DNA of 34,584 nt from a virus (lineage: Duplodnaviria > Heunggongvirae > Uroviricota > Caudoviricetes), in IMG/VR virus record IMGVR_UViG_2734482772_000010; one strand, 5' to 3'. Position 1 is the first letter of the stretch; every line of letters begins with the position of its first letter. Position numbers and translations under genes: made by a program. Below, piece after piece: positions 1,086-33,612 of this stretch. The notes under the pieces were generated by a model that worked only from the letters and a program-made list of their open reading frames with translations, was not told the origin of the DNA and did no database searches.

Positions 1086-2181
1086 CGGACACCCCGGTCA
1101 TGTTAAGAGTGATCGCCGTGCAGTTTGCCCATTCGTTTTCTGCCACCACCCGCAGTGGCGGTGTCACCAGTTCAACCTGGTACACCCCGGAGACGGACAA
1201 CACACTGATAATCTGGCTGGGAACAATATCGCGCCCCAGCGTGGCGGTACGTGATGCCACCCAGTTCTGTATGGCGCTGTTGGCGTTGTCCTTTACCGAG
1301 TTGGCATCCTGGTCGCGGTAGATCGTGATATTGGCTTCAATGGTGTAATCCACCTGAACAGGTGTTTTAGCCCGCACGGTATCAGTGAGTGGTCTGACTT
1401 TTTCGTCAGAACAGAAACTCTCTACCAGAGTGAGGATACTGCTGTCCGGCAGACCAGTGCTGAGCAGCGGATACAGCTCGACAGTGCCGGGAACGGGAGA
1501 AAGAACAGCAACGTCGACAATGCCGGGATGCGCCCCCATAGCATGAAAACGGTATGCACCACGGCTTCCGGCATTGGTGAATGACTCCGGGGCCAGCCTG
1601 ATACGCTCCCGGAGCCGGTGATCGTCTTCCTGCTCTGAACCGCCAGAGCTGGCCGTCAGATTGGTCACCAGCAGGTCAATGTTATCAATCTCATCGAGTA
1701 ACTGACTGACCTGCGCCGGTTGCCAGCCGTTGCCAGCGGTACCCGGCTCGGTACAGGTGGCCGTGACATTGACCAGCAGCAATCCGGCCTTCAGCACCAC
1801 GTCTGTATCGGTGGCAAAAATAATACTGTCGGAAGCGCTGACGCGGGTGCCTGCCGGGATCAGCACATCAATGGCCAGTGCCTCATCCACAGAGAACTGA
1901 AGTGTGGTGGTGGCAGGCTGCGCGGCAAGGCGGTATACACCGACCAGTTCACCGAGGTAATCAATCATCGGCTCACGGGAAAAAGCGACCAGATTCTGCT
2001 TCGCCGCCTCCTGTACTGCCACCCTGACCAGCATTTCGCGATAGGCCCACAGGTCAATCAGCAGACGTTCAGCCTGTGCCGGGTACAGCGTTTTTCCGGT
2101 ATCCGCTTCATACTTCGCAATCATTTCTGCCGTGATTTTATCGGCATCGCGTTCAATAAAATCGGGTTCTGTCAGCGCCAT
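1078..2181 (-). CDS. baseplate J-like protein (P2 gpJ / Mu gp47-like)
   Basis: 367-aa ORF immediately downstream of the gpW-like gene with overlapping stop/start; size and position typical of baseplate wedge J proteins. Confidence 0.7.
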   Translation of the reverse strand: MALTEPDFIERDADKITAEMIAKYEADTGKTLYPAQAERLLIDLWAYREMLVRVAVQEAAKQNLVAFSREPMIDYLGELVGVYRLAAQPATTTLQFSVDEALAIDVLIPAGTRVSASDSIIFATDTDVVLKAGLLLVNVTATCTEPGTAGNGWQPAQVSQLLDEIDNIDLLVTNLTASSGGSEQEDDHRLRERIRLAPESFTNAGSRGAYRFHAMGAHPGIVDVAVLSPVPGTVELYPLLSTGLPDSSILTLVESFCSDEKVRPLTDTVRAKTPVQVDYTIEANITIYRDQDANSVKDNANSAIQNWVASRTATLGRDIVPSQIISVLSVSGVYQVELVTPPLRVVAENEWANCTAITLNMTGVSDG

Positions 2182-2519
2182 AGCAACTCCTGAGTACGGG
2201 GTTGTCCGTCTGAGCCTTTCCAGCTCACCCGGAGCGTAAGATGTTCGCCGTCGACGGCGGGTTTAACCGACATAAGCTGGCAGCGGGGTTCCCAGCGCCT
2301 GATGGCATCGACGGATTCGCGAACCACATGCGGAATGGCCCGGTCGACAGGCCAGTCGATATAAAGGTGCAGATTGCTGCCGAACTCCGGGCGATGCGGG
2401 TCGCTGCCGCGGGGAGTCCGCAGGATGATCTGGATGGACTGCCGGATATCATCCAGCCCCCGGACGATTTCGCCGGGAGCCTGCAGAGCTGGTTGCCAGA
2501 ATACTGAGGTCGTTTTCAT
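2172..2519 (-). CDS. baseplate wedge protein (GPW/gp25-like)
   Basis: 115-aa ORF; sequence DDIRQSIQIILRTPRGSDPHRPEFGSNL and IRRWEPR matches the conserved GPW/gp25 pattern. Confidence 0.7.
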   Translation of the reverse strand: MKTTSVFWQPALQAPGEIVRGLDDIRQSIQIILRTPRGSDPHRPEFGSNLHLYIDWPVDRAIPHVVRESVDAIRRWEPRCQLMSVKPAVDGEHLTLRVSWKGSDGQPRTQELLWR

Positions 2520-2551
2520 GGAGGCAGTATTGCCCCCGGGAAGTAAGCGCC

Positions 2552-2574
2552 GATATTAAAGGCGTTTAAGAAGG
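2552..2574 (-). promoter_or_regulatory. conserved late-promoter-like motif, copy upstream of baseplate W/J/I and tail-fibre genes
   Basis: Plus-strand GATATTAAAGGCGTTTAAGAAGG, abutting the gpV-like stop and 33-55 nt upstream of the gpW-like start. Confidence 0.45.
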
Positions 2575-4254: not shown

Positions 4255-4457
4255 GGGGCAATATCCTCTTCTGTACGGGCATCTTCAGCCTCAATAACCG
4301 GGATCAGTAACAACAACCCGGAGGGCAGCACCGGCGTAATGGCCACGTGCGGATTGGCTGCAATAATCCGGGGATAGCCCAGCGGGTCACCGTAGTACTG
4401 CCATGCCAGCGAATCCCAGCGCTCTCCGTCACGGGTAATATGTTCAAGAAACATCAC
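4242..4457 (-). CDS. phage tail protein X-like
   Basis: 71-aa ORF; W..YYGDP......IIAANP pattern resembles P2 gpX; overlaps both neighbours. Confidence 0.6.
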   Translation of the reverse strand: MMFLEHITRDGERWDSLAWQYYGDPLGYPRIIAANPHVAITPVLPSGLLLLIPVIEAEDARTEEDIAPWLR

Positions 4458-5338
4458 ACACTCCTCGTCAGTATTCTGGCGGCCATTGCACTTAATCCCG
4501 GAGACATGCGGTTGAATGCTGTGCCGGCGGCGTTAAGCTGCCCGGAAACGGTATCCAGAGCACCTGCAATATTTCTTTTGTCCACACCACTCAGCGCCGA
4601 CTGCGCCTGCTGTACATACGTGGCTGCCTCACTGGCTGTTCTGGCCAGACTGATGGCATCGGGCATGGATTCAGAGAGTGCATTAAACGCCGGAACACTT
4701 TTCCCCAGAGCTCCGGATATATTACCCAGTCCGCTCATCAGTCCCGGCACACGGGTCAGCGCGACAACGGGGTTACCCTTCATTTTCTGCGCCACCCGAA
4801 CGGCACTGATAGTGGTCTGGAGTACAGACTGCGCCTGTTTCGCATAGTTGACGCCGTTACGGACGAACTGCGCCACCCCGGAAGGCGATGGAACAGCACC
4901 AGATACGGCCCCGGCACCGGGAACCTGCCTGCGTATTGCCGGCGGTTGCAGAGGATTTTTCGGGTCACCGGTGTATTCCCGGAGAGACACGGTGGCACTG
5001 ACAGCCAGCACGTTACCGGTGCTGTCTGTCTGCTCGCTGGTTGCGGTCACATCGGTAATCACGAACCAGCCGCGATAGTCACCGTTGCCGAAGACCAGCG
5101 CCAGTGCCTGATGGGCCTTCATGGCTGTTCGCACTCTCGCCAGCTCCACGTCGGGCACACAATAATGCTGATGGAAGACCAGGCTTATCTGGATTTCGTC
5201 CAGCCTGTCGCCGACGAACTGCAGGCCGGGTTTACCCTCGATGCGGGCATGCTCCGCATAATCGACGCCGGACGTGGCCTCGAAGCCGTCCCAGTAGGTA
5301 ATCAGTTCAAACTCAATATCACCCAGTACGGCAAACAT
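4454..5338 (-). CDS. tail protein with P2 gpU-like N-terminal domain (Mu N / DNA circularisation protein-like)
   Basis: 294-aa ORF; N-terminal ~130 aa (MFAVLGDIEFELITYWDGFE...) resembles gpU-family tail proteins; Ala/Ser/Gly-rich C-terminal extension; directly downstream of tape measure gene. Confidence 0.55.
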   Translation of the reverse strand: MFAVLGDIEFELITYWDGFEATSGVDYAEHARIEGKPGLQFVGDRLDEIQISLVFHQHYCVPDVELARVRTAMKAHQALALVFGNGDYRGWFVITDVTATSEQTDSTGNVLAVSATVSLREYTGDPKNPLQPPAIRRQVPGAGAVSGAVPSPSGVAQFVRNGVNYAKQAQSVLQTTISAVRVAQKMKGNPVVALTRVPGLMSGLGNISGALGKSVPAFNALSESMPDAISLARTASEAATYVQQAQSALSGVDKRNIAGALDTVSGQLNAAGTAFNRMSPGLSAMAARILTRSV

Positions 5339-7803
5339 CAGCTGTACTCCTTACGTTGTTTCTGAGCCAGCAGACGCTCCAGCATTTTTTCCAGCTCATG
5401 CAGGCTCATATTCAGGGCACCAGTCAGCCCGGCAGGCGCTGCGGTTTCCTTACCATTGAGAAAAAACTGAGGATTAAAGCTGACCTGGATACCGCCAGAC
5501 GCTCCACCGCCGGTTGCAGTTGCGCCACGGCCTGAATATCCGGCAGCCATGATTTCCGGCGACGGGATACGGGGAACATCCGGTGTCATTTCAGCGGCCA
5601 GGCGCTGCCCGGCCAGTGCAGCAAGCGGAGTGGTCCGTTGCAGGCCAATGGCGGCACCCTGCGCGATATTGTCACCAAAGCCCATAAACACGCGACTCGG
5701 TGAATGGATGCCCAGCTTTTCGCTGAACCAGTCACTGATGCTGTCACCCATTCCGGTTACGCTGGTTTTGAGTGACTCCCATTTGTTTCTGATGCCATTT
5801 ATCAGCCCGTCAATAAGATGTCCACCGAAGTCGGTGAATTTCGCCGGCAGATCAACGCCGAGATATTTCAGCGCAGCCGCAAAGGCTTTATAAAGCAGAC
5901 CAGCCGGAGACCAGTTAACCAGCAGTTTACCAATTCCCGCGATGCCGCCGTTAAAGGCTTCCTGAATGTCAGCCCAGCGCTGTTTAAACCAGCTACTGAC
6001 AGCGCCCCAGTTGCGGTAGATAAGGTAAGCTGCTGCCGCGACGGCGGTGATAACGAGACCGACGGGATTCATCAGCAGCGCCCGGCCAATCCAGAGAACG
6101 GCACGCCCGGCGCTCATAATTCCGCGAACCAGCCCCCCTGAGAGCACACCCCCCAGTGTTCTGGCTCCTCTGGCGACGGCACCAAAGCCTGTCACCAGCC
6201 AGCGGAGTTTACCGCCTTCCCCCAGTGCGAGCATCAGACGAAGCCAGTTGGCCCGAAGTAAAACAGCATTTTTCCAGACGCTTACAAAGGGGGAAATAAG
6301 GAGATTCAGCCCAAGCTTGAGACCGATAGTGGCCATCCTGAAAGCGAGTAATGCGCCCACAACCTTTATGGTGCTGCTGACGAGCTGCGGATTTGCCGCT
6401 ATCCATTTGCCGACGCTGTCCATTAAAGGAATAAATGTTTCACCCAACTGGAGCAAAGCCGGACGCAAGGATTGCCCGATGCTGATAGCAGAATCATTAA
6501 AGCCGATCTGCATTCTGCGCCAGCGACCTTCAAGCGTATCATTCTGCTTTGCAGCATCCTTATCCAGGGTAGACATTGCAGCCGGAGCATTCATTTCCTG
6601 CTTACTGGAAAGGTATTTATCCCAGCCCTGTCGCATTGACAGTAAATGGTTGACAGTCTGAATATCGGTAAAGACCTCAGCCAGACCAAATGACTCCATG
6701 AGTTTCTGCTGACCTTCCTGATCGCCTCTTGCTCCTGCAGCTTTCCATTGCTGCAAAAACGCTTTGCCTTTACTGTCGATAAAACGGTTGGCAATCATCA
6801 GTGAAGCTTCGTACTGCGAAAAACCCTGAGCGACGTAATTCTGCATTGACCCCTGGTAATCCACCCCGGCTTTAGCATATTTCTGGATGGTATCTCCGCG
6901 GCCCATTGCTGCCAGCCAGTTGGACATATTGGTGACCGCTTCCTCTGCAGAGCCACTACCTTTACCGACCTCCAGACTGGCAACAATCTGGGTAATCGCA
7001 TCTTTTCCATAAATACCACGAGCAGCGAAGGCTTTAGCCATACCGGGTAATGCTTTTGCCATATCCTTCAGCTCAAATGACCCAAGTTTGGCTCCTGTTG
7101 CCGCAATACCAAATGCCTGTTCAAGTTCTTTCGCATCAGTGATTCTGAGTGCATCGCTGAAGGCATAAGTCATTTTGGCAAGGTCGGTCATATCGGCTTT
7201 GGTTGCTGTAGCGGTCTTTCCAAGCATCTCTGCAAACGTTGCTGCCCGTTCGGGGGCCATACCATCAGCAACTAATTGTCCGACTCCCCCTAACAGAGAC
7301 TCCTGCAGTTGGTTAACCTTCAGCGAGGCCTGTCTGATAGCCAGGCCAATTGCACGTTCCTGTTTTGCATCCAGGTCTCCTGTGACACTGATATCCCGTA
7401 ACTGTGATTCAAACGAGGCATATTGTTTAACCGAGGCCATGACCGGTGCGCCCAGCGTTCTGCCAATAGCATAGGTTTCTGCACCCTGACCATAGAGCGC
7501 CAGGCGGTTAGCCTTCAACGCATCACCGGTGGCTGATACTGCTGACAGACGGCGCTGCTGACGTTCAATTTGCTCCATGGTGCGGCTTACCCGCAGCAAC
7601 TCGCTGTTGAGATGCTGCATCCGGGAAGAACCCAGTTGACCATAACGTTCTGTTGCCCGGGTTAAGGCATTCTGGCGTTCCTGCAGACGGCGGGAGGTAT
7701 CACCAAGGGAATCAAGGGCGCGTCGGGTGCCACTGACGGCTGAGCGGAAGCTGCTCCCGACAATGCCGCCAATAATGACGCCGACTGAAAATTCACTGGC
7801 CAC
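5338..7803 (-). CDS. tail tape measure protein
   Basis: 821-aa ORF, largest tail gene, between chaperone pair and gpU-like gene; Ala/Gly-rich with internal hydrophobic segments. Confidence 0.8.
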   Translation of the reverse strand: MASEFSVGVIIGGIVGSSFRSAVSGTRRALDSLGDTSRRLQERQNALTRATERYGQLGSSRMQHLNSELLRVSRTMEQIERQQRRLSAVSATGDALKANRLALYGQGAETYAIGRTLGAPVMASVKQYASFESQLRDISVTGDLDAKQERAIGLAIRQASLKVNQLQESLLGGVGQLVADGMAPERAATFAEMLGKTATATKADMTDLAKMTYAFSDALRITDAKELEQAFGIAATGAKLGSFELKDMAKALPGMAKAFAARGIYGKDAITQIVASLEVGKGSGSAEEAVTNMSNWLAAMGRGDTIQKYAKAGVDYQGSMQNYVAQGFSQYEASLMIANRFIDSKGKAFLQQWKAAGARGDQEGQQKLMESFGLAEVFTDIQTVNHLLSMRQGWDKYLSSKQEMNAPAAMSTLDKDAAKQNDTLEGRWRRMQIGFNDSAISIGQSLRPALLQLGETFIPLMDSVGKWIAANPQLVSSTIKVVGALLAFRMATIGLKLGLNLLISPFVSVWKNAVLLRANWLRLMLALGEGGKLRWLVTGFGAVARGARTLGGVLSGGLVRGIMSAGRAVLWIGRALLMNPVGLVITAVAAAAYLIYRNWGAVSSWFKQRWADIQEAFNGGIAGIGKLLVNWSPAGLLYKAFAAALKYLGVDLPAKFTDFGGHLIDGLINGIRNKWESLKTSVTGMGDSISDWFSEKLGIHSPSRVFMGFGDNIAQGAAIGLQRTTPLAALAGQRLAAEMTPDVPRIPSPEIMAAGYSGRGATATGGGASGGIQVSFNPQFFLNGKETAAPAGLTGALNMSLHELEKMLERLLAQKQRKEYS

Positions 7804-7895: not shown

Positions 7896-8153
7896 TTACT
7901 GATTGTCGCCGAACTCGCTTTTGATTTGCTCTTCAGCCTGCTCCAGCCACATCTCCAGATCGTCAGTATCGAGGGCATCAATCTCCCCCGGCTGAAACCT
8001 GAACCATCTCGCCAGCAGGCCCTGCGCCTGCATCAGTGTTTTTGTCGCTCTTGCCCAGCCCAGTGATTTTCTGAAATCGTTTCTGCAGCTCCATATAGTC
8101 GGCAAGATCCATGTTATCGAGGTCTTCCGGGAGGATACCGGTGCTACGGGCAA
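7896..8153 (-). CDS. frameshift-extended C-terminal part of tail assembly chaperone (candidate +1/-2 fusion)
   Basis: Second ORF overlaps the 3' 176 nt of the chaperone ORF in the +1 frame and ends 90 nt before the tape measure start; A5 tract GACAAAAACAC in the overlap. Confidence 0.4.
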   Translation of the reverse strand: MPVAPVSSRKTSITWILPTIWSCRNDFRKSLGWARATKTLMQAQGLLARWFRFQPGEIDALDTDDLEMWLEQAEEQIKSEFGDNQ

Positions 8154-8313
8154 TCAGTGGTTCGTCCCAGTCTGCCGGGTCTTTGTTGATTTTGCGCACC
8201 TGCTTCAGGTCTTTTACTGTCAGGCGTTTCAGTTCAATCTGTTCAATTCTGGTACCTGCAGCAGTGGTGAAAGGATAAGACAGCGTAAAAGTATCGGACT
8301 GGGTCTGTGACAT
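7978..8313 (-). CDS. tail assembly chaperone (short form)
   Basis: ORF-track ORF 7978..8319; second ATG at 8313 (MSQTQ...) sits ~7 nt downstream of an AAGGAG Shine-Dalgarno; immediately upstream of tape measure gene. Confidence 0.6.
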   Translation of the reverse strand: MSQTQSDTFTLSYPFTTAAGTRIEQIELKRLTVKDLKQVRKINKDPADWDEPLIARSTGILPEDLDNMDLADYMELQKRFQKITGLGKSDKNTDAGAGPAGEMVQVSAGGD

Positions 8314-8365
8314 GATCATACTCCTTTGTAAATTCAGAGCAGTATGTCTGGCGGTGGACGTGACG

Positions 8366-8388
8366 GATATTAAAGGGGATTAAGAAGA
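8366..8388 (-). promoter_or_regulatory. conserved late-promoter-like motif, copy upstream of tail chaperone/tape measure genes
   Basis: Plus-strand GATATTAAAGGGGATTAAGAAGA, 53-75 nt upstream of chaperone start. Confidence 0.45.
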
Positions 8389-8404
8389 AGGGGCCGGAGC
8401 CCCT
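8381..8404 (-). terminator. candidate intrinsic terminator after the 93-aa ORF
   Basis: Minus-strand hairpin AGGGGC-UCCG-GCCCCU followed by U-rich UCUUCUU. Confidence 0.4.
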
Positions 8405-8410
8405 GTGATG

Positions 8411-8692
8411 TCAGCAAGTGCGAAAACCCTTGCAGTTACGCAGGAAAGCGATGAGAAGCGCCTTTCCCTCAGATTTGCCGATGCCGGAGAACCAGTGGTC
8501 GGGCGGCTCCCATGCTTCAATCAAATCGGCCAGTTTGCGGGCCTTTGAACGTGTGCAGTCAATCGGGTCATTGGTTTTACGGGTATTAAAAAGGGTTTCC
8601 ACCCCCGGAATATCAAGGAGGGTAAACCACGTACCATTTGACATGCCCAGTGACGCACATCGCCCTCCTTTGTCAGTCAGTTCAACACTCAC
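8411..8692 (-). CDS. hypothetical protein (93 aa) between tail tube and chaperone genes
   Basis: ORF-track ORF; tightly packed after tube gene; followed by its own hairpin; no family recognised. Confidence 0.4.
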   Translation of the reverse strand: MSVELTDKGGRCASLGMSNGTWFTLLDIPGVETLFNTRKTNDPIDCTRSKARKLADLIEAWEPPDHWFSGIGKSEGKALLIAFLRNCKGFRTC

Positions 8693-8694
8693 CG

Positions 8695-9216
8695 TCAGCC
8701 CCCGATATTGATCCGATAGTCAGTCAGTTGATCAACGCCACCGACGCGGAAGATGTTGGCCAGATAGTCCAGTTGCAGCAACTCTTCACCATCCAGTACC
8801 TGTCTGATATACGTGCAGGTGAAGCTACTGGAGAACTCGGCGTTCTCGTGCTGTTTAAACGTCCCCAGCGGATTCTTCTTGAACATAATTGTCAGGAAGG
8901 TGACCAGCGGGATTTCGTCGATCAGCCCCTGCGAGCTGTAGCGCTGGACGCTGGAGCGACACTGCAGCGCCAGCGACTTGTACGGGTTCGCGGCAGACAG
9001 CATCGCATCGCGGTAAAAGCTGTTCCATTTGATTTCGCCTTCCAGTTTGTCAAAACCAGCCGGGAGTTCCACCTTACCCACCATCCCCAGGGCCTTGTGT
9101 TCCTGCATAATCATGGAGACATCGGGGAGTTTAACCTCCTCAGCCCGTCCCAGCAGGTTAGTGCCATCCAGATAGATGTTGGCATTCGTGATTCGGTTTA
9201 TCTCAATCTTTGACAT
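8695..9216 (-). CDS. tail tube protein
   Basis: 173-aa ORF directly downstream of the sheath gene (stop/start overlap). Confidence 0.7.
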   Translation of the reverse strand: MSKIEINRITNANIYLDGTNLLGRAEEVKLPDVSMIMQEHKALGMVGKVELPAGFDKLEGEIKWNSFYRDAMLSAANPYKSLALQCRSSVQRYSSQGLIDEIPLVTFLTIMFKKNPLGTFKQHENAEFSSSFTCTYIRQVLDGEELLQLDYLANIFRVGGVDQLTDYRINIGG

Positions 9217-10643
9217 CAGTTGCCCCCTTTCAGGGTTAACAGGTATTCCGAGGTGATCTCAGTCTCAAACGTCAGTCGCTCCAGCGGCGGTGGTGGCGTA
9301 TATTTGTAGCTCAGCAACAGGTGCCCGGCGGCCAGCTCCGTTTCCGGATTGCGGGCCGGATCAAACCAGCAACGGAAGCCCAGTACCGCGCCATCACCAG
9401 TCATTTTGCGACCGTAGGCGTTGACCGACTCCGTCAGTGCATCAATCAGCGCCTGAGTAATCGGCATGTCGATGTACTGCTGGCTGAAGTAACGAATGGA
9501 CTCATTGATCACATCACCGGTGCGGCGAACGTTCTCAAAGTTACGCATATGGGTGACCGTTGGCCATGCTGCCGTCCGGTTACCCCACAGACGAAGGCCG
9601 CTGCCGTAACTGCTGAATACCGTGGTGATCCCCTGTTCGTTAAGCAGGTTCACCTCGCTCTGCGGATCGTCAATCATTGCCGACAGCTGGCGCTCCACGC
9701 CGGAGATCCCCAGAATTTCCTGATTGGAGGATGACCACCAGTACCCTTTGTCCAGGTCGACTCTGGCACGCAGGCCCGCCGCACGCTGGCTCAGTGGCTC
9801 CAGACGCTCCGTGTTCGTCACCGGGTCATATACCTTCACATGCGGGTAGCACAGGCGGACACGGTCAGAGCTGGTATTAAAGTTAATGGTGCCTTCCGGG
9901 CCACGTCCCGCCAGAGCCTGCGCAAAAGTGGTACCAACCGGCGCATCAATATAGGTTACTGCTCCCAGTTTCTCAGCCATGGCGATAAGCTCAACCGAGA
10001 CGCTGTTCTGGGTGCAGAATACCGGAGCAATCAGGATTTTGGCGAAGTAGCCAAACAGGTTAAAACTGTCGTTAAGTAGCTTCATGCCGGTACGGTTGCC
10101 TGCAGCGTTAACGGTACCGATGATATCAGCCGGGGTGACTTTGGTCGGATCAGCATAGTTATAGCTGGCCTTCACCGTTGCATCTGCAGCAATGCTTTTA
10201 CCCAGGTTAGTAATCACCCCGGTCTGTGCATCAAGCGAGTAGTCCTGACCTTCAACATAAGGCTGACCGTCGCTGTCCGGTTTCAGTACCAGCTGCGCGA
10301 CCACCGGATTAGCCAGCCGGGCTCTGCCTGTCGCCTTGTCGAACGACACATTCTCACTGACCACAGCGGTTTTATGCACAGACGGATCGAGTACGTTAAT
10401 GACCAGAACGGTGCCTGCACCATGGTCATAAATCGCATCCAGCGCCTGCGGAATGGTAAAGCCGGTGAACTGGCTGCCAAATGCCGCAGCGTCTTTCGCA
10501 GACAGGCACTGTACCAGCGTATTGACATCCCCCATCGGGGCGGTACCAATCAGGCCAATAACGGCAGATTTCACCGTTTTAACCGGGCGGGCTCCGTTTT
10601 CCACCTCAATGGTTTCGACGCCATGCAGATAGTTAGCTGCCAT
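9216..10643 (-). CDS. contractile tail sheath protein
   Basis: 475-aa ORF; size, position before tube gene and sequence character typical of Mu L / P2 FI sheath proteins. Confidence 0.85.
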   Translation of the reverse strand: MAANYLHGVETIEVENGARPVKTVKSAVIGLIGTAPMGDVNTLVQCLSAKDAAAFGSQFTGFTIPQALDAIYDHGAGTVLVINVLDPSVHKTAVVSENVSFDKATGRARLANPVVAQLVLKPDSDGQPYVEGQDYSLDAQTGVITNLGKSIAADATVKASYNYADPTKVTPADIIGTVNAAGNRTGMKLLNDSFNLFGYFAKILIAPVFCTQNSVSVELIAMAEKLGAVTYIDAPVGTTFAQALAGRGPEGTINFNTSSDRVRLCYPHVKVYDPVTNTERLEPLSQRAAGLRARVDLDKGYWWSSSNQEILGISGVERQLSAMIDDPQSEVNLLNEQGITTVFSSYGSGLRLWGNRTAAWPTVTHMRNFENVRRTGDVINESIRYFSQQYIDMPITQALIDALTESVNAYGRKMTGDGAVLGFRCWFDPARNPETELAAGHLLLSYKYTPPPPLERLTFETEITSEYLLTLKGGN

Positions 10644-28429: not shown

Positions 28430-29596
28430 ATGCTGGTACTGAAGCAGCAACTGAAAGAGGCCCGTATTCCACAGGCGGTGGTGGCGAGAGCTGTCGATGT
28501 TTCTGAGGCCACGCTGGCCCAGATTGTGAATCATAACGCGTGGCCCCGCACCCGCCCCGGAGAAGTGCGCCGGCGTCTTGCGTCCTGGCTGGAAAGTCAG
28601 GGGATTGATACAACGAAGAGTTTTGATGCTGTACAGGGCGCGGCCACGCCCCGTACAGCGGGTACCACAGATAAAACGAGCCTCAGTGAGGAAGAGAATA
28701 TGTTACTCAAAAAACAGGTGTTATTTCCAGCAACCAAAAAAGCGTTTGGTCTTTTCCGTGACCCGTTCGCCGACGAAGCCATGCAGGGTTCTGATGATGT
28801 GTTCACCACCCCGGACATTCGCTACGTGCGTGAGGCGCTGTACCAGACAGCCCGTCATGGCGGGTTTATGGCCGTCATCGGTGAGTCCGGTGCGGGTAAA
28901 TCCACGCTGCGCCGCGACCTGACTGAACGTATCAACCGCGAGAATGCGCCGGTGATTGTTATCGAGCCATACGTCATCGCCATGGAAGACAACGATGTGA
29001 AAGGGAAAACCCTGAAGGCAGCAGCGATTGCCGAAGCCATTATCAGTACCATCGCACCACTGGAAAGCATCAGACGCAGTCAGGACGCCCGCTTTCGCCA
29101 GTTGCATCGCGTCCTGAAAGACAGCAGCCAGGCGGGGTTCAGCCACGTTCTGGTGATTGAGGAGGCCCACAGTCTGCCTATTCCGACACTGAAACACCTC
29201 AAACGCTTTTTTGAGCTGGAGTCCGGTTTCAAAAAACTGCTGTCCATCGTGCTGATTGGCCAGCCGGAACTGGCGACAAAACTGTCTGAACGCAATATGG
29301 AAGTCCGTGAAGTCGTTCAGCGCTGTGAGGTGGTCGAACTTCTGCCTCTGGACAATAACCTTGAAGAGTTTCTGACGTTCAAACTGCAACGGGCCGGTAA
29401 ACAACTGACGGACATTATGGACGCCGGCGCAGTGGATGCCATACGTGCCCGCCTGAGCAATCCGGGAAGTCACCGTAAAAACAGGGTCAGCCTGCTGTAT
29501 CCGCTGGCCGTCAGTAACCTGGTGATAGCCGCCATGAATCTGGCTGCTGAAATCGGTGTTCCACAGGTCAACGCTGACGTTGTCAAAGGGGTTTAA
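28430..29596 (+). CDS. transposition ATPase (Mu B / TniB-like AAA+)
   Basis: ORF-track ORF 28403..29596 (TTG) with ATG at 28430 after GGAGGG; Walker A GESGAGKST and Walker B-like HVLVIEEAH. Confidence 0.8.
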   Translation: MLVLKQQLKEARIPQAVVARAVDVSEATLAQIVNHNAWPRTRPGEVRRRLASWLESQGIDTTKSFDAVQGAATPRTAGTTDKTSLSEEENMLLKKQVLFPATKKAFGLFRDPFADEAMQGSDDVFTTPDIRYVREALYQTARHGGFMAVIGESGAGKSTLRRDLTERINRENAPVIVIEPYVIAMEDNDVKGKTLKAAAIAEAIISTIAPLESIRRSQDARFRQLHRVLKDSSQAGFSHVLVIEEAHSLPIPTLKHLKRFFELESGFKKLLSIVLIGQPELATKLSERNMEVREVVQRCEVVELLPLDNNLEEFLTFKLQRAGKQLTDIMDAGAVDAIRARLSNPGSHRKNRVSLLYPLAVSNLVIAAMNLAAEIGVPQVNADVVKGV

Positions 29597-29598
29597 GA

Positions 29599-29868
29599 AT
29601 GAAATCCATCACAGGTATCAACCAGCAAATCAGCAAAGTGCAGTCAGCCATTATGGCGCTTATGGCGACGAACACGGATGTACAAAGCATCACCATCAGG
29701 GGCAATAAACCTGTCATCCGCGTTTCCCGGAGTGCGCATTGCATGCGCATGCTTGAACAGGGGAAAGCCAGTTATCTGTATACCGGTCATGACCACAGGG
29801 GACATTTCCGTCAGGGCGTTTTCGAACTGCACGGCTGTCGCGTCGTGTGGCCGGAATCTTTGTGGTAA
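29599..29868 (+). CDS. hypothetical early protein, 89 aa
   Basis: Starts 3 nt after B stop; no family recognised. Confidence 0.4.
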   Translation: MKSITGINQQISKVQSAIMALMATNTDVQSITIRGNKPVIRVSRSAHCMRMLEQGKASYLYTGHDHRGHFRQGVFELHGCRVVWPESLW

Positions 29869-32804: not shown

Positions 32805-33254
32805 ATGCAGAAAAAACGACTGATTCAGCTTATCCATATTGCCCGTAATGAACTGGGTCTGGATGAAGACACCTACCGCCAGATGTTACAGGGGCTGACC
32901 GGTAAAGCCTCAACCAAAGGAATGGATACCACACAACTAAACTGCGTGCTGGAATCCATGAAAAAGAAAGGCTTTCGGGTTAAACCTGCCAGAAAAGCCA
33001 GCTCCGGTTTACCGCTGGATGACCATCCGCAGTCCAGGAAAATTCGTGCGCTATGGCTTGAAATGGCTGCTGCCGGCATTGTTCGTGACCGTTCAGAAAA
33101 TGCATTAGCGCGGTGGATCAAGCGGGAAACGGGCATCAGCGCCCTGCACTGGCTCAGTACTGAACAGGCAAGCAGTGTTATTGAGAAACTGAAGAAGTGG
33201 CAGCACAGAGCTGCGGGAGTCAAACATGAGCGACCTGAATCAGTTTCGAAGTAA
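32805..33254 (+). CDS. gemA: GemA-like regulatory protein (Mu gp16 family)
   Basis: 149-aa ORF; N-terminus MQKKRLIQLIHIARNELGLDEDTYRQML resembles GemA family; immediately upstream of and overlapping the Mor-like gene, as in Mu. Confidence 0.6.
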   Translation: MQKKRLIQLIHIARNELGLDEDTYRQMLQGLTGKASTKGMDTTQLNCVLESMKKKGFRVKPARKASSGLPLDDHPQSRKIRALWLEMAAAGIVRDRSENALARWIKRETGISALHWLSTEQASSVIEKLKKWQHRAAGVKHERPESVSK

Positions 33255-33612
33255 GGGGCCGGAACTCCTGGTGGAACTGGCACAGCATACCTCTGAGACC
33301 GTTCGCGAGATTATTGATATTGAGCCCGAAGTTGCCGACCAGATTGGTCAGGCCGTCGCGAACCGCATGATGCAGGTCTGGGGCGGGCAAAACGTTTATT
33401 TTCCTATGGGGATGAGATGGAAGATAAGCCAGCGTGACCGTGAAATCTATGAGGCGTTTAACGGACGTAACCACCACGAACTGTCCCGCAGATTCAGGGT
33501 TTCAGTTCCCTGGATTTACAACCTGGTAAAGCGCGTAAGAAAGGAAGAAATCAGCCGGTTGCAGGGGCAGTTATTCGAAGACGATGATGAACCGAATGAC
33601 AGCCGGGATTAA
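33226..33612 (+). CDS. mor: Mor-like transcriptional activator (Mor/C family)
   Basis: 128-aa ORF; GGQNVYFPMG...RDREIYEAFNGRNHHELSRRFRVSVPWIYNLVKRVR parallels the Mu Mor C-terminal DNA-binding region as recalled. Confidence 0.7.
   Translation: MSDLNQFRSKGPELLVELAQHTSETVREIIDIEPEVADQIGQAVANRMMQVWGGQNVYFPMGMRWKISQRDREIYEAFNGRNHHELSRRFRVSVPWIYNLVKRVRKEEISRLQGQLFEDDDEPNDSRD

Follow-up and report, generated by a model that had tools for sequence, protein, structure and literature searches.

A DUF7739-family gene as probable cargo at the tail tube/chaperone junction of a BcepMu-like prophage

The morons of temperate phages were first described for HK97 and HK022, and P2-like phages and their satellites carry cargo and defence genes in hotspots at fixed positions. 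In phage Mu, late promoters are activated by proteins of the Mor/C family. Morons have been reviewed under the title 'The moron comes of age' (PMC3594210). Here we analyse a 93-aa open reading frame (ORF) in the viral sequence IMGVR_UViG_2734482772_000010, the whole 34,584-nt stretch of which is referred to as the window. The window is ~94% identical to Escherichia phage PhiKM (Bcepmuvirus by classification) and ~90% identical to Klebsiella phage KP12, and its gene products include a DDE transposase (rve), a MuB-like AAA ATPase, GemA and a Mor-family activator; the window therefore represents a BcepMu-like, Mu-type transposable prophage. The explanation that accounts best for the ORF, and that we consider very probable, is a cargo (moron-like) gene of the DUF7739 family inserted at the 3' end of the sheath-tube late unit, before a pre-existing hairpin and promoter.

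Every gene of the locus lies on the minus strand, in the order tail sheath (9216-10643; Pfam Phage_sheath_1), tail tube of the P2 FII type (8695-9216; Phage_tube, PF04985, E=2e-53), 93-aa ORF (8411-8692), a 91-nt spacer, tail assembly chaperone of the gpE type (7978-8319; Phage_TAC_7, PF10109, E=1.5e-22), tape measure (5338-7803) and gpU (4454-5338). The tube gene is the last core gene of the sheath-tube unit. The ORF, which we assign below to a divergent branch of DUF7739/phrog_1239, is wedged between tube and chaperone just as a preliminary description of this DNA had it: its GTG start codon (8692-8690) follows the tube TGA (8697-8695) after 2 nt, and beyond its own TGA stop codon come a hairpin (8389-8404) and then the chaperone gene. 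A GGGGG run resembling a Shine-Dalgarno sequence (8699-8703, minus strand) lies within the last codons of the tube gene and precedes the GTG by 6 nt; it suggests that translation of the ORF may be coupled to that of the tube gene. The encoded product has 10.3 kDa, is soluble and is slightly basic (pI 8.4). The base composition of the ORF is not distinct, with a GC content of 52.5% compared to 53.1% for the tube gene, 51.2% for the chaperone gene and 54.7% for the window. Taken as a whole, the arrangement is ordinary for a temperate phage.

Some further features of the window were recorded alongside. The true start of the chaperone gene is probably the ATG at 8313 and not 8319, judging from an AAGGAG 7 nt before it (site 8311-8326, minus strand); the PhiKM annotation uses the shorter chaperone form. 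The second chaperone frame (7896-8153, minus strand; ending ...GLLARWFRFQPGEIDALD...) is shifted by +1 (equivalently -2), not by -1, relative to the gpE-like ORF at 7978-8319, and the overlap of the two frames contains GACAAAAACAC (about 8046-8036). An additional hairpin, CAGCCGCCAGTCGCGGCTG (about 7888-7870), followed by a T7 run, lies ahead of the tape-measure start. Between the lysis cassette and the repressor region, a DUF2441 ORF (22173-22754, minus strand) and a Dam-like D12 methyltransferase gene (22983-23747, plus strand) probably mark 22173-23747 as another accessory region of the prophage.

The tube/chaperone junction was compared across loci gathered via the tube protein, 80 from IMG/VR (tube at least 91% identical) and 75 from GTDB species-representative genomes. 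In both sets a junction was called empty if less than 200 nt separated tube and chaperone; the empty IMG/VR junctions measure ~90-130 nt. A DUF7739 gene lies directly behind the tube gene in 57/80 IMG/VR loci and 11/75 species loci, and a partial copy was found in 4/80 and 2/75. A gene of the N4-gp49/Sf6-gp66 family (PF13876) is placed between tube and DUF7739 in 10/80 and 5/75 loci, one of the latter with a partial DUF7739, while a different 66-aa gene (phrog_9518) fills the junction in 2/80 and 4/75. Seven of the 80 IMG/VR junctions and 32 of the 75 species junctions are empty. Other content (15/75) and loci that were truncated or in which the chaperone was not found (6/75) occurred in the species set, with no such case among the 80 IMG/VR loci. 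Essentially all distant relatives in the species set have an empty junction, and in the founding phages of the genus, BcepMu and phiE255, the tube gene is followed by 121 nt and the chaperone gene, with no gene between them. Where DUF7739 is present it can be decaying: one copy contains an in-frame TGA (L065), another has a 42-aa internal in-frame deletion (L072), and several Photorhabdus genomes retain 56-aa C-terminal remnants. The preliminary description had favoured a small inserted gene over a core tail component, an opinion to be given up if the protein were a stoichiometric virion component conserved in all relatives. Presence and absence across these loci bear it out, as the ORF is not universal: it is missing from BcepMu, phiE255, 32/75 species loci and 7/80 IMG/VR loci, and elsewhere it is replaced or accompanied by other cargo, or decayed. 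These observations argue that the ORF is a dispensable, non-core accessory gene and not a part of the tail. The variety of what the junction holds (DUF7739, gp49_66, phrog_9518, a Fer2-like ORF, CdiA-CT/CdiI, PAAR or an insertion sequence, IS) points to a cargo slot.

Several of these junctions deserve description in their own right. Two distant BcepMu-like prophages carry interbacterial-competition genes within the tail operon: the junction in Neisseriaceae bacterium TC5R-5 (L147:3077-4324) holds a CdiA-CT RNase toxin gene (PF18431, E=1e-31) together with a CdiI immunity gene (PF18593), and that in Chromobacterium sphagni (L145:773-3150) holds a reverse-strand gene for a PAAR-domain protein and three further ORFs. 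Screening of the junction cargo with PADLOC defence models gave no match. The N4 gp49/Sf6 gene 66 family gene encodes 97 aa (PF13876, E=4.6e-12; phrog_322) and is found at L038:4024-4310 and in 14 more loci (e.g. L091, L092, L094, L098); where it precedes DUF7739, two Sf6-type accessory genes are stacked in one slot. Six Pectobacterium loci (L126, L127, L128, L131, L133, L137) carry in the slot, ~24-356 nt past the tube end, an ORF of ~109 aa with a weak Fer2-like match (PF00111, 22.1 bits), whose cluster-binding cysteines are apparently lost as judged by eye (SSRAGADPSSAARLISG at the expected Cys-rich loop). In Pantoea stewartii (L098:4132-5091), an IS with a DDE_Tnp_1 transposase sits between the DUF7739 gene and the chaperone gene and cuts the chaperone operon off from the hairpin/promoter region of the junction. 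Finally, two Arthrobacter records (sp. GMC3 and Y81; L090 and L164) are short contigs with tube proteins 99-100% identical to that of this enterobacterial prophage, L090 also containing the ORF (96%), and these copies are probably assembly contamination.

The GC hairpin behind the ORF, AGGGGCTCCGGCCCCT (8389-8404, minus strand), was recognized by scanning and by comparison with relatives as an element that may serve the sheath-tube(-cargo) transcript as an intrinsic terminator or may stabilise its 3' end. It begins 6 nt past the ORF stop, comprises 6 pairs of which 5 are G-C (about -12.8 kcal/mol), and is directly followed by TCTTCTTAAT. Among the terminator-like sites of a 10-kb scan it ranked first (8404-8389). 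The consensus terminator scan overall was not above chance (13 sites found vs 8.7 +/- 2.6 expected), the folding energy of the 101-nt region was unremarkable (z = -0.27), and an Rfam search over 7900-9300 found nothing. On the window sequence alone, the hairpin is not significant. It becomes convincing, as a predicted element, through comparison with relatives: a hairpin of -9 to -24 kcal/mol occupies the same position, just before the promoter motif described below, in 32 of 33 distinct junction sequences. At least five unrelated stems are represented, e.g. GGGGCTYCGGCCCC, GGGGGCCGCAAGGCTCCC, GAGGGGCCTGGTGGCCCCT, AAGGAGGG...CCCTCCTT and GGGGGCG...CGTCCC, and the stem sequence tracks the phage lineage and not the cargo. 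The occurrence of independent stems at one position argues for a function as terminator, attenuator or 3'-end stabiliser behind the genes of the two most abundant tail proteins. The T tract of the hairpin is interrupted (TTCTTCTT), and termination may be partial or absent.

At empty junctions the tube stop is followed by a short spacer, the GC hairpin, a T-rich tail, TTAA-N6-TTAA, CATACTGC and the chaperone gene. The presence of hairpin and motif at junctions that hold no gene suggests that cargo enters between the tube stop and a hairpin that is already there. Hairpin and promoter would thus belong to the junction, not to the ORF, and would pre-date the insertion. The ORF had earlier been credited with its own terminator-like hairpin; the hairpin itself stands, supported by nearly all junction sequences of the relatives, and the ownership is not supported, given that empty junctions have one too.

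Past the hairpin, a T-rich tail leads into a putative activator-type late promoter (8339-8388, minus strand), identified as a member of a repeat family and by pattern searches with 0.00-0.29 matches expected. Its parts are TCTTCTTAATCCCCTTTAATATC, which contains the TTAA-N6-TTAA dyad, then 19 nt, then CATACTGC with a -10-like CATACT (8346-8341), after which comes the ribosome-binding site of the chaperone gene. The pattern TTTAAnATC-N17-22-[AC]ATACTGC occurs exactly twice in the window (0.00 expected), at 8339-8374 upstream of the chaperone gene and at 2524-2560 upstream of the gp25/W baseplate gene (2172-2519, minus strand), where the second motif copy extends over 2524-2573 (minus strand). 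A looser pattern revealed a weaker, intergenic third copy (21769-21786, minus strand) upstream of the holin gene (21368-21751, minus strand). A fourth, degenerate copy (29579-29600) is located where the MuB-like gene ends and is oriented in a way that matches no operon start. Relatives conserve the motif whatever cargo their junction holds. The late-promoter-like motif reported after the hairpin is real, both exact copies lying upstream of late genes, and the operon boundary proposed on the same occasion is upheld: the hairpin is followed by an activator-type motif that recurs at late-operon starts, and the phage encodes a Mor-family transcription activator (33226-33612, plus strand; Pfam Mor, PF08765, E=5e-41). 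By analogy, motif and Mor gene fit the activator-dependent late promoters of the Mu type, which makes the Mor-family protein a candidate factor acting at the motif.

What we propose for expression and function is drawn from the architecture and evolution of the locus, which were observed directly. A consensus scan of the minus strand between 8692 and 9947, which weak or unusual promoters could escape, found no sigma-70-like promoter. Most likely, the ORF would have no promoter of its own, and its product would be made late in the lytic cycle only, through coupled translation of the abundant sheath-tube mRNA. The hairpin would end or attenuate the sheath-tube(-cargo) transcript, and a promoter dependent on a Mor/C-type activator would restart transcription for the chaperone, tape-measure and gpU/X/D genes. 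Alternatively, the gene could serve lysogenic conversion: a promoter concealed within the 3' portion of the tube gene would drive its transcription in the lysogen as far as the hairpin, and the gene would confer superinfection exclusion or a fitness benefit. Placement between two conserved late genes with a hairpin behind is indeed how morons are found; relatives carry competition cargo in the same slot (CdiA-CT/CdiI in L147, PAAR in L145), and 642 of the 5426 complete E. coli genomes (~12%) contain the locus, ST131 strains among them. However, the promoter scan was negative over the region where such a promoter would be hidden, the start codon follows the tube stop after 2 nt, cargo-free junctions have the hairpin as well, and the GC content does not set the ORF apart from the window. 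We therefore regard a role in lysogenic conversion as unlikely and retain late expression of inserted cargo as our working model.

Homologues of the ORF outside the BcepMu-like group share 40-54% identity with it and lie in early-left accessory regions of P22-like/lambdoid phages and prophages. Gene 22 of Sf6 is flanked on one side by a DUF2737 gene, two genes upstream of which lies abc2, and on the other by an Ea22-like gene, behind which comes a Lar-like gene. Early-left homologues are also present in phiv205-1, CUS-3 (hkaH locus) and HK75; the homologue of vB_Ecl_MII_001 adjoins EaA, and those of Edwardsiella EPP-1 and of Plesiomonas prophages adjoin RdgC, RecT and xis-int. One homologue was found on an unclassified contig with an integrase gene on one side and a small terminase gene on the other, and others reside in phage-plasmid-like genomes of ~92-95 kb. 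The family's neighbours in other temperate phages thus include Abc2, Erf/RecT, RdgC, Ea22 and Lar-like genes. This distribution suggests that the DUF7739 gene is mobile and horizontally shared among unrelated temperate phages. Podoviruses such as Sf6 and CUS-3 and siphoviruses such as HK75 are among the carriers; these phages have neither a sheath nor a P2-type tube, and a tail-specific role for the family is therefore excluded.

Because the family sits elsewhere among early-left accessory genes (Abc2, Erf/RecT, RdgC, Ea22, Lar-like), the ORF protein might have its target in the host, with a part in counter-defence or host takeover, and not in the virion; we put this forward as a tentative possibility based on analogy. 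Expression would be late in this phage versus early in lambdoid phages, and the role may differ between the two contexts. One way to reconcile the timing would be a protein that is made late, packaged and ejected with the DNA, so that it acts at the start of the next infection, with the same timing as the early-left lambdoid copies. Consistent with such delivery, the homologue in Yersinia phage fHe-Yen8-01 (39% identical) carries the deposited annotation 'particle associated protein' and lies amid other genes of that name, and in the present phage the ORF would be co-expressed with the most abundant tail proteins. We found no publication behind the fHe-Yen8-01 annotation, however, and abundant soluble proteins often contaminate virion preparations. 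Moreover, a Pfam scan of the neighbours of the phage-plasmid homologues, where a Dar-like block of packaged proteins was looked for, detected no domains of that or any other kind, the sequence has no packaging signal or structural-protein-like feature, and most homologues are early genes of phages without such delivery. We consider delivery with the virion improbable.

The last functional alternative is a core or auxiliary tail protein of the enterobacterial branch, such as a factor for tube or sheath assembly. Its position between tube and chaperone would suit such a factor, as would purifying selection (see below) and near-fixation in E. coli prophages: among the 642 E. coli genomes with a hit, 636 match no less than 80% of an ORF-centred query, which means that the gene is nearly fixed in E. 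coli prophages of this type and is not freely lost there. Against this stand six loci (L061, L074, L076, L077, L081, L087) that have no ORF despite tube proteins of 91-97% identity, as well as its absence from BcepMu and phiE255, the nonsense and deletion alleles mentioned above, and the homologues in early operons of podoviruses and a siphovirus with neither sheath nor P2-type tube. The tail-component reading is already largely refuted and retains a very low probability.

The preliminary description had seen no recognisable family in the ORF product. Profile searches correct this: residues 1-93 match positions 1-96 of the 96 positions of phrog_1239 (E=5e-48), the Pfam family DUF7739 (PF24881) is hit with 25.7 bits, under its cut-off of 27, and homologues include Sf6 gene 22 and the proteins of CUS-3, HK75 and phage-plasmid-like genomes. 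A family profile that includes the window protein retrieves 165 proteins, mostly pre-annotated as PF24881 (E~1e-41), and PF24881 is matched by 97 of 101 aligned relatives. We accordingly place the window protein, on sequence similarity, as a member of DUF7739/phrog_1239 in a divergent sub-branch. Residues W22, F83, C87 and G89 are identical in all 101 sequences, and another 15 positions reach a conservation of 90% or more; the near-invariant residues of the family are N19, T21, D42, W61, P63, P64 and W67. An exhaustive profile search of 1.84 billion representatives yielded at least 86 clusters, nearly all of them stand-alone proteins of 90-100 aa, and tblastn against phage genomes gave 21 records with a homologue of the ORF. 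Members of 92-102 aa, alignable end to end and encoded by stand-alone small phage or prophage genes, make up a small and narrow family. Searches of the literature on DUF7739, phrog_1239, fHe-Yen8-01, hkaH and PhiKM/Bcepmuvirus found nothing relevant.

AlphaFold2, run on an alignment of the 101 sequences, predicts a compact alpha/beta fold (pLDDT 94.3, pTM 0.86). A profile search of the family against PDB sequences gave no match, and a PDB fold search gave nothing significant, the best hit being the N-terminal domain of DapD (E=0.08), with further sub-threshold resemblances to YfbM and to the DNA mimic DMP12 (E above 3). The idea of a DNA mimic raised by DMP12 was rejected in view of the slightly basic character of the protein. 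A fold search of BFVD returned unnamed viral proteins only (best E=5e-4). The predicted fold would thus be unlike any solved structure. The protein matched no PADLOC defence model and no NCBIfam profile, and a search for a secondary Pfam signal shared across the 101 members gave noise only (e.g. Stealth_CR1 in 11, E 0.0085 or weaker).

Twelve diverse homologues align collinearly from residue 1, with 13 invariant positions and a conserved N-terminus MTVELxDK, which validates the GTG start at 8692. An alternative start after the strong AAAGGAGGG run within the ORF (8671-8663) was considered and rejected, because MTVELxDK is conserved from the first GTG/ATG; the next GTG is out of frame and opens a 45-aa ORF. 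Across 43 alleles from BcepMu-like loci, dN/dS is 0.098 for the ORF, compared to 0.019 for the tube gene and 0.11 for the chaperone gene. The full-length phrog_1239 match, the conserved N-terminus, this dN/dS ratio and the pLDDT of the model together argue that the ORF is a real gene. That it is a chance ORF in a long intergenic spacer, as its shortness, its GTG start and a 97-aa antisense ORF overlapping it might suggest, is already refuted by conservation (family size, dN/dS, predicted structure) and has a negligible probability.

On its own, the ORF is a routine annotation point, one more accessory prophage gene. Its practical value lies in its presence in about one in eight complete E. coli genomes, ST131 included, and in its mobility among unrelated temperate phages; as a small family, confidently folded in the model and unlike solved structures, it is a reasonable candidate for functional screening. 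The junction may be seen as a natural 'landing pad', the contents of which (DUF7739, gp49_66, CdiA-CT/CdiI, PAAR) could be a source of genes involved in phage-host conflict, and as a clean example of a promoterless passenger gene set between a strongly expressed gene for a structural protein and the terminator of that gene. A more far-reaching proposal would make DUF7739 a new counter-defence or host-takeover protein with a novel fold, expressed early from PL in lambdoid phages and together with tail proteins in BcepMu-like phages, where it would counter late-acting abortive-infection sensors that respond to structural proteins or would travel in the virion, and would make the junction a previously undescribed cargo hotspot with toxin-immunity and PAAR cassettes. 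As a whole, this proposal is speculative and rather doubtful.

How, then, does the locus compare with the systems described? The window protein resembles the product of Sf6 gene 22 and its homologue at the CUS-3 hkaH locus in length (92-102 aa), in end-to-end alignment, in the invariant residues and in being encoded by a stand-alone gene; unlike these, it is encoded in the late tail operon of a Mu-type myovirus, whereas the Sf6/CUS-3 type belongs to the early-left region. As in Mu, a dyad-like element (here TTAA-N6-TTAA) takes the place of a -35 at late-operon starts, a weak -10 follows ~19 nt downstream, and a Mor-family gene is present; the sequence of the motif differs from the Mu C/Mor sites, and binding and activation here are putative. 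Similar to the hotspots of P2-like phages and their satellites, a single fixed junction between conserved genes holds unrelated cargo that differs among relatives, the difference being that the phages are BcepMu-like and that the junction is the one between tube and chaperone. Finally, the ORF is like the morons in being an extra gene between conserved late genes, absent from collinear relatives, common to unrelated phages and followed by a terminator-like hairpin. It differs from them in that a consensus scan detected no promoter for it, that its composition offers no contrast and that the hairpin appears older than the insertion. As regards the terminator that marks a moron, a hairpin with a T-rich tail does follow the ORF, and the same type of hairpin is found at empty junctions; it is apparently shared with, or inherited from, the tube operon. 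Compared with a typical moron, the ORF resembles a passenger that rides on the sheath-tube transcript with no promoter of its own.
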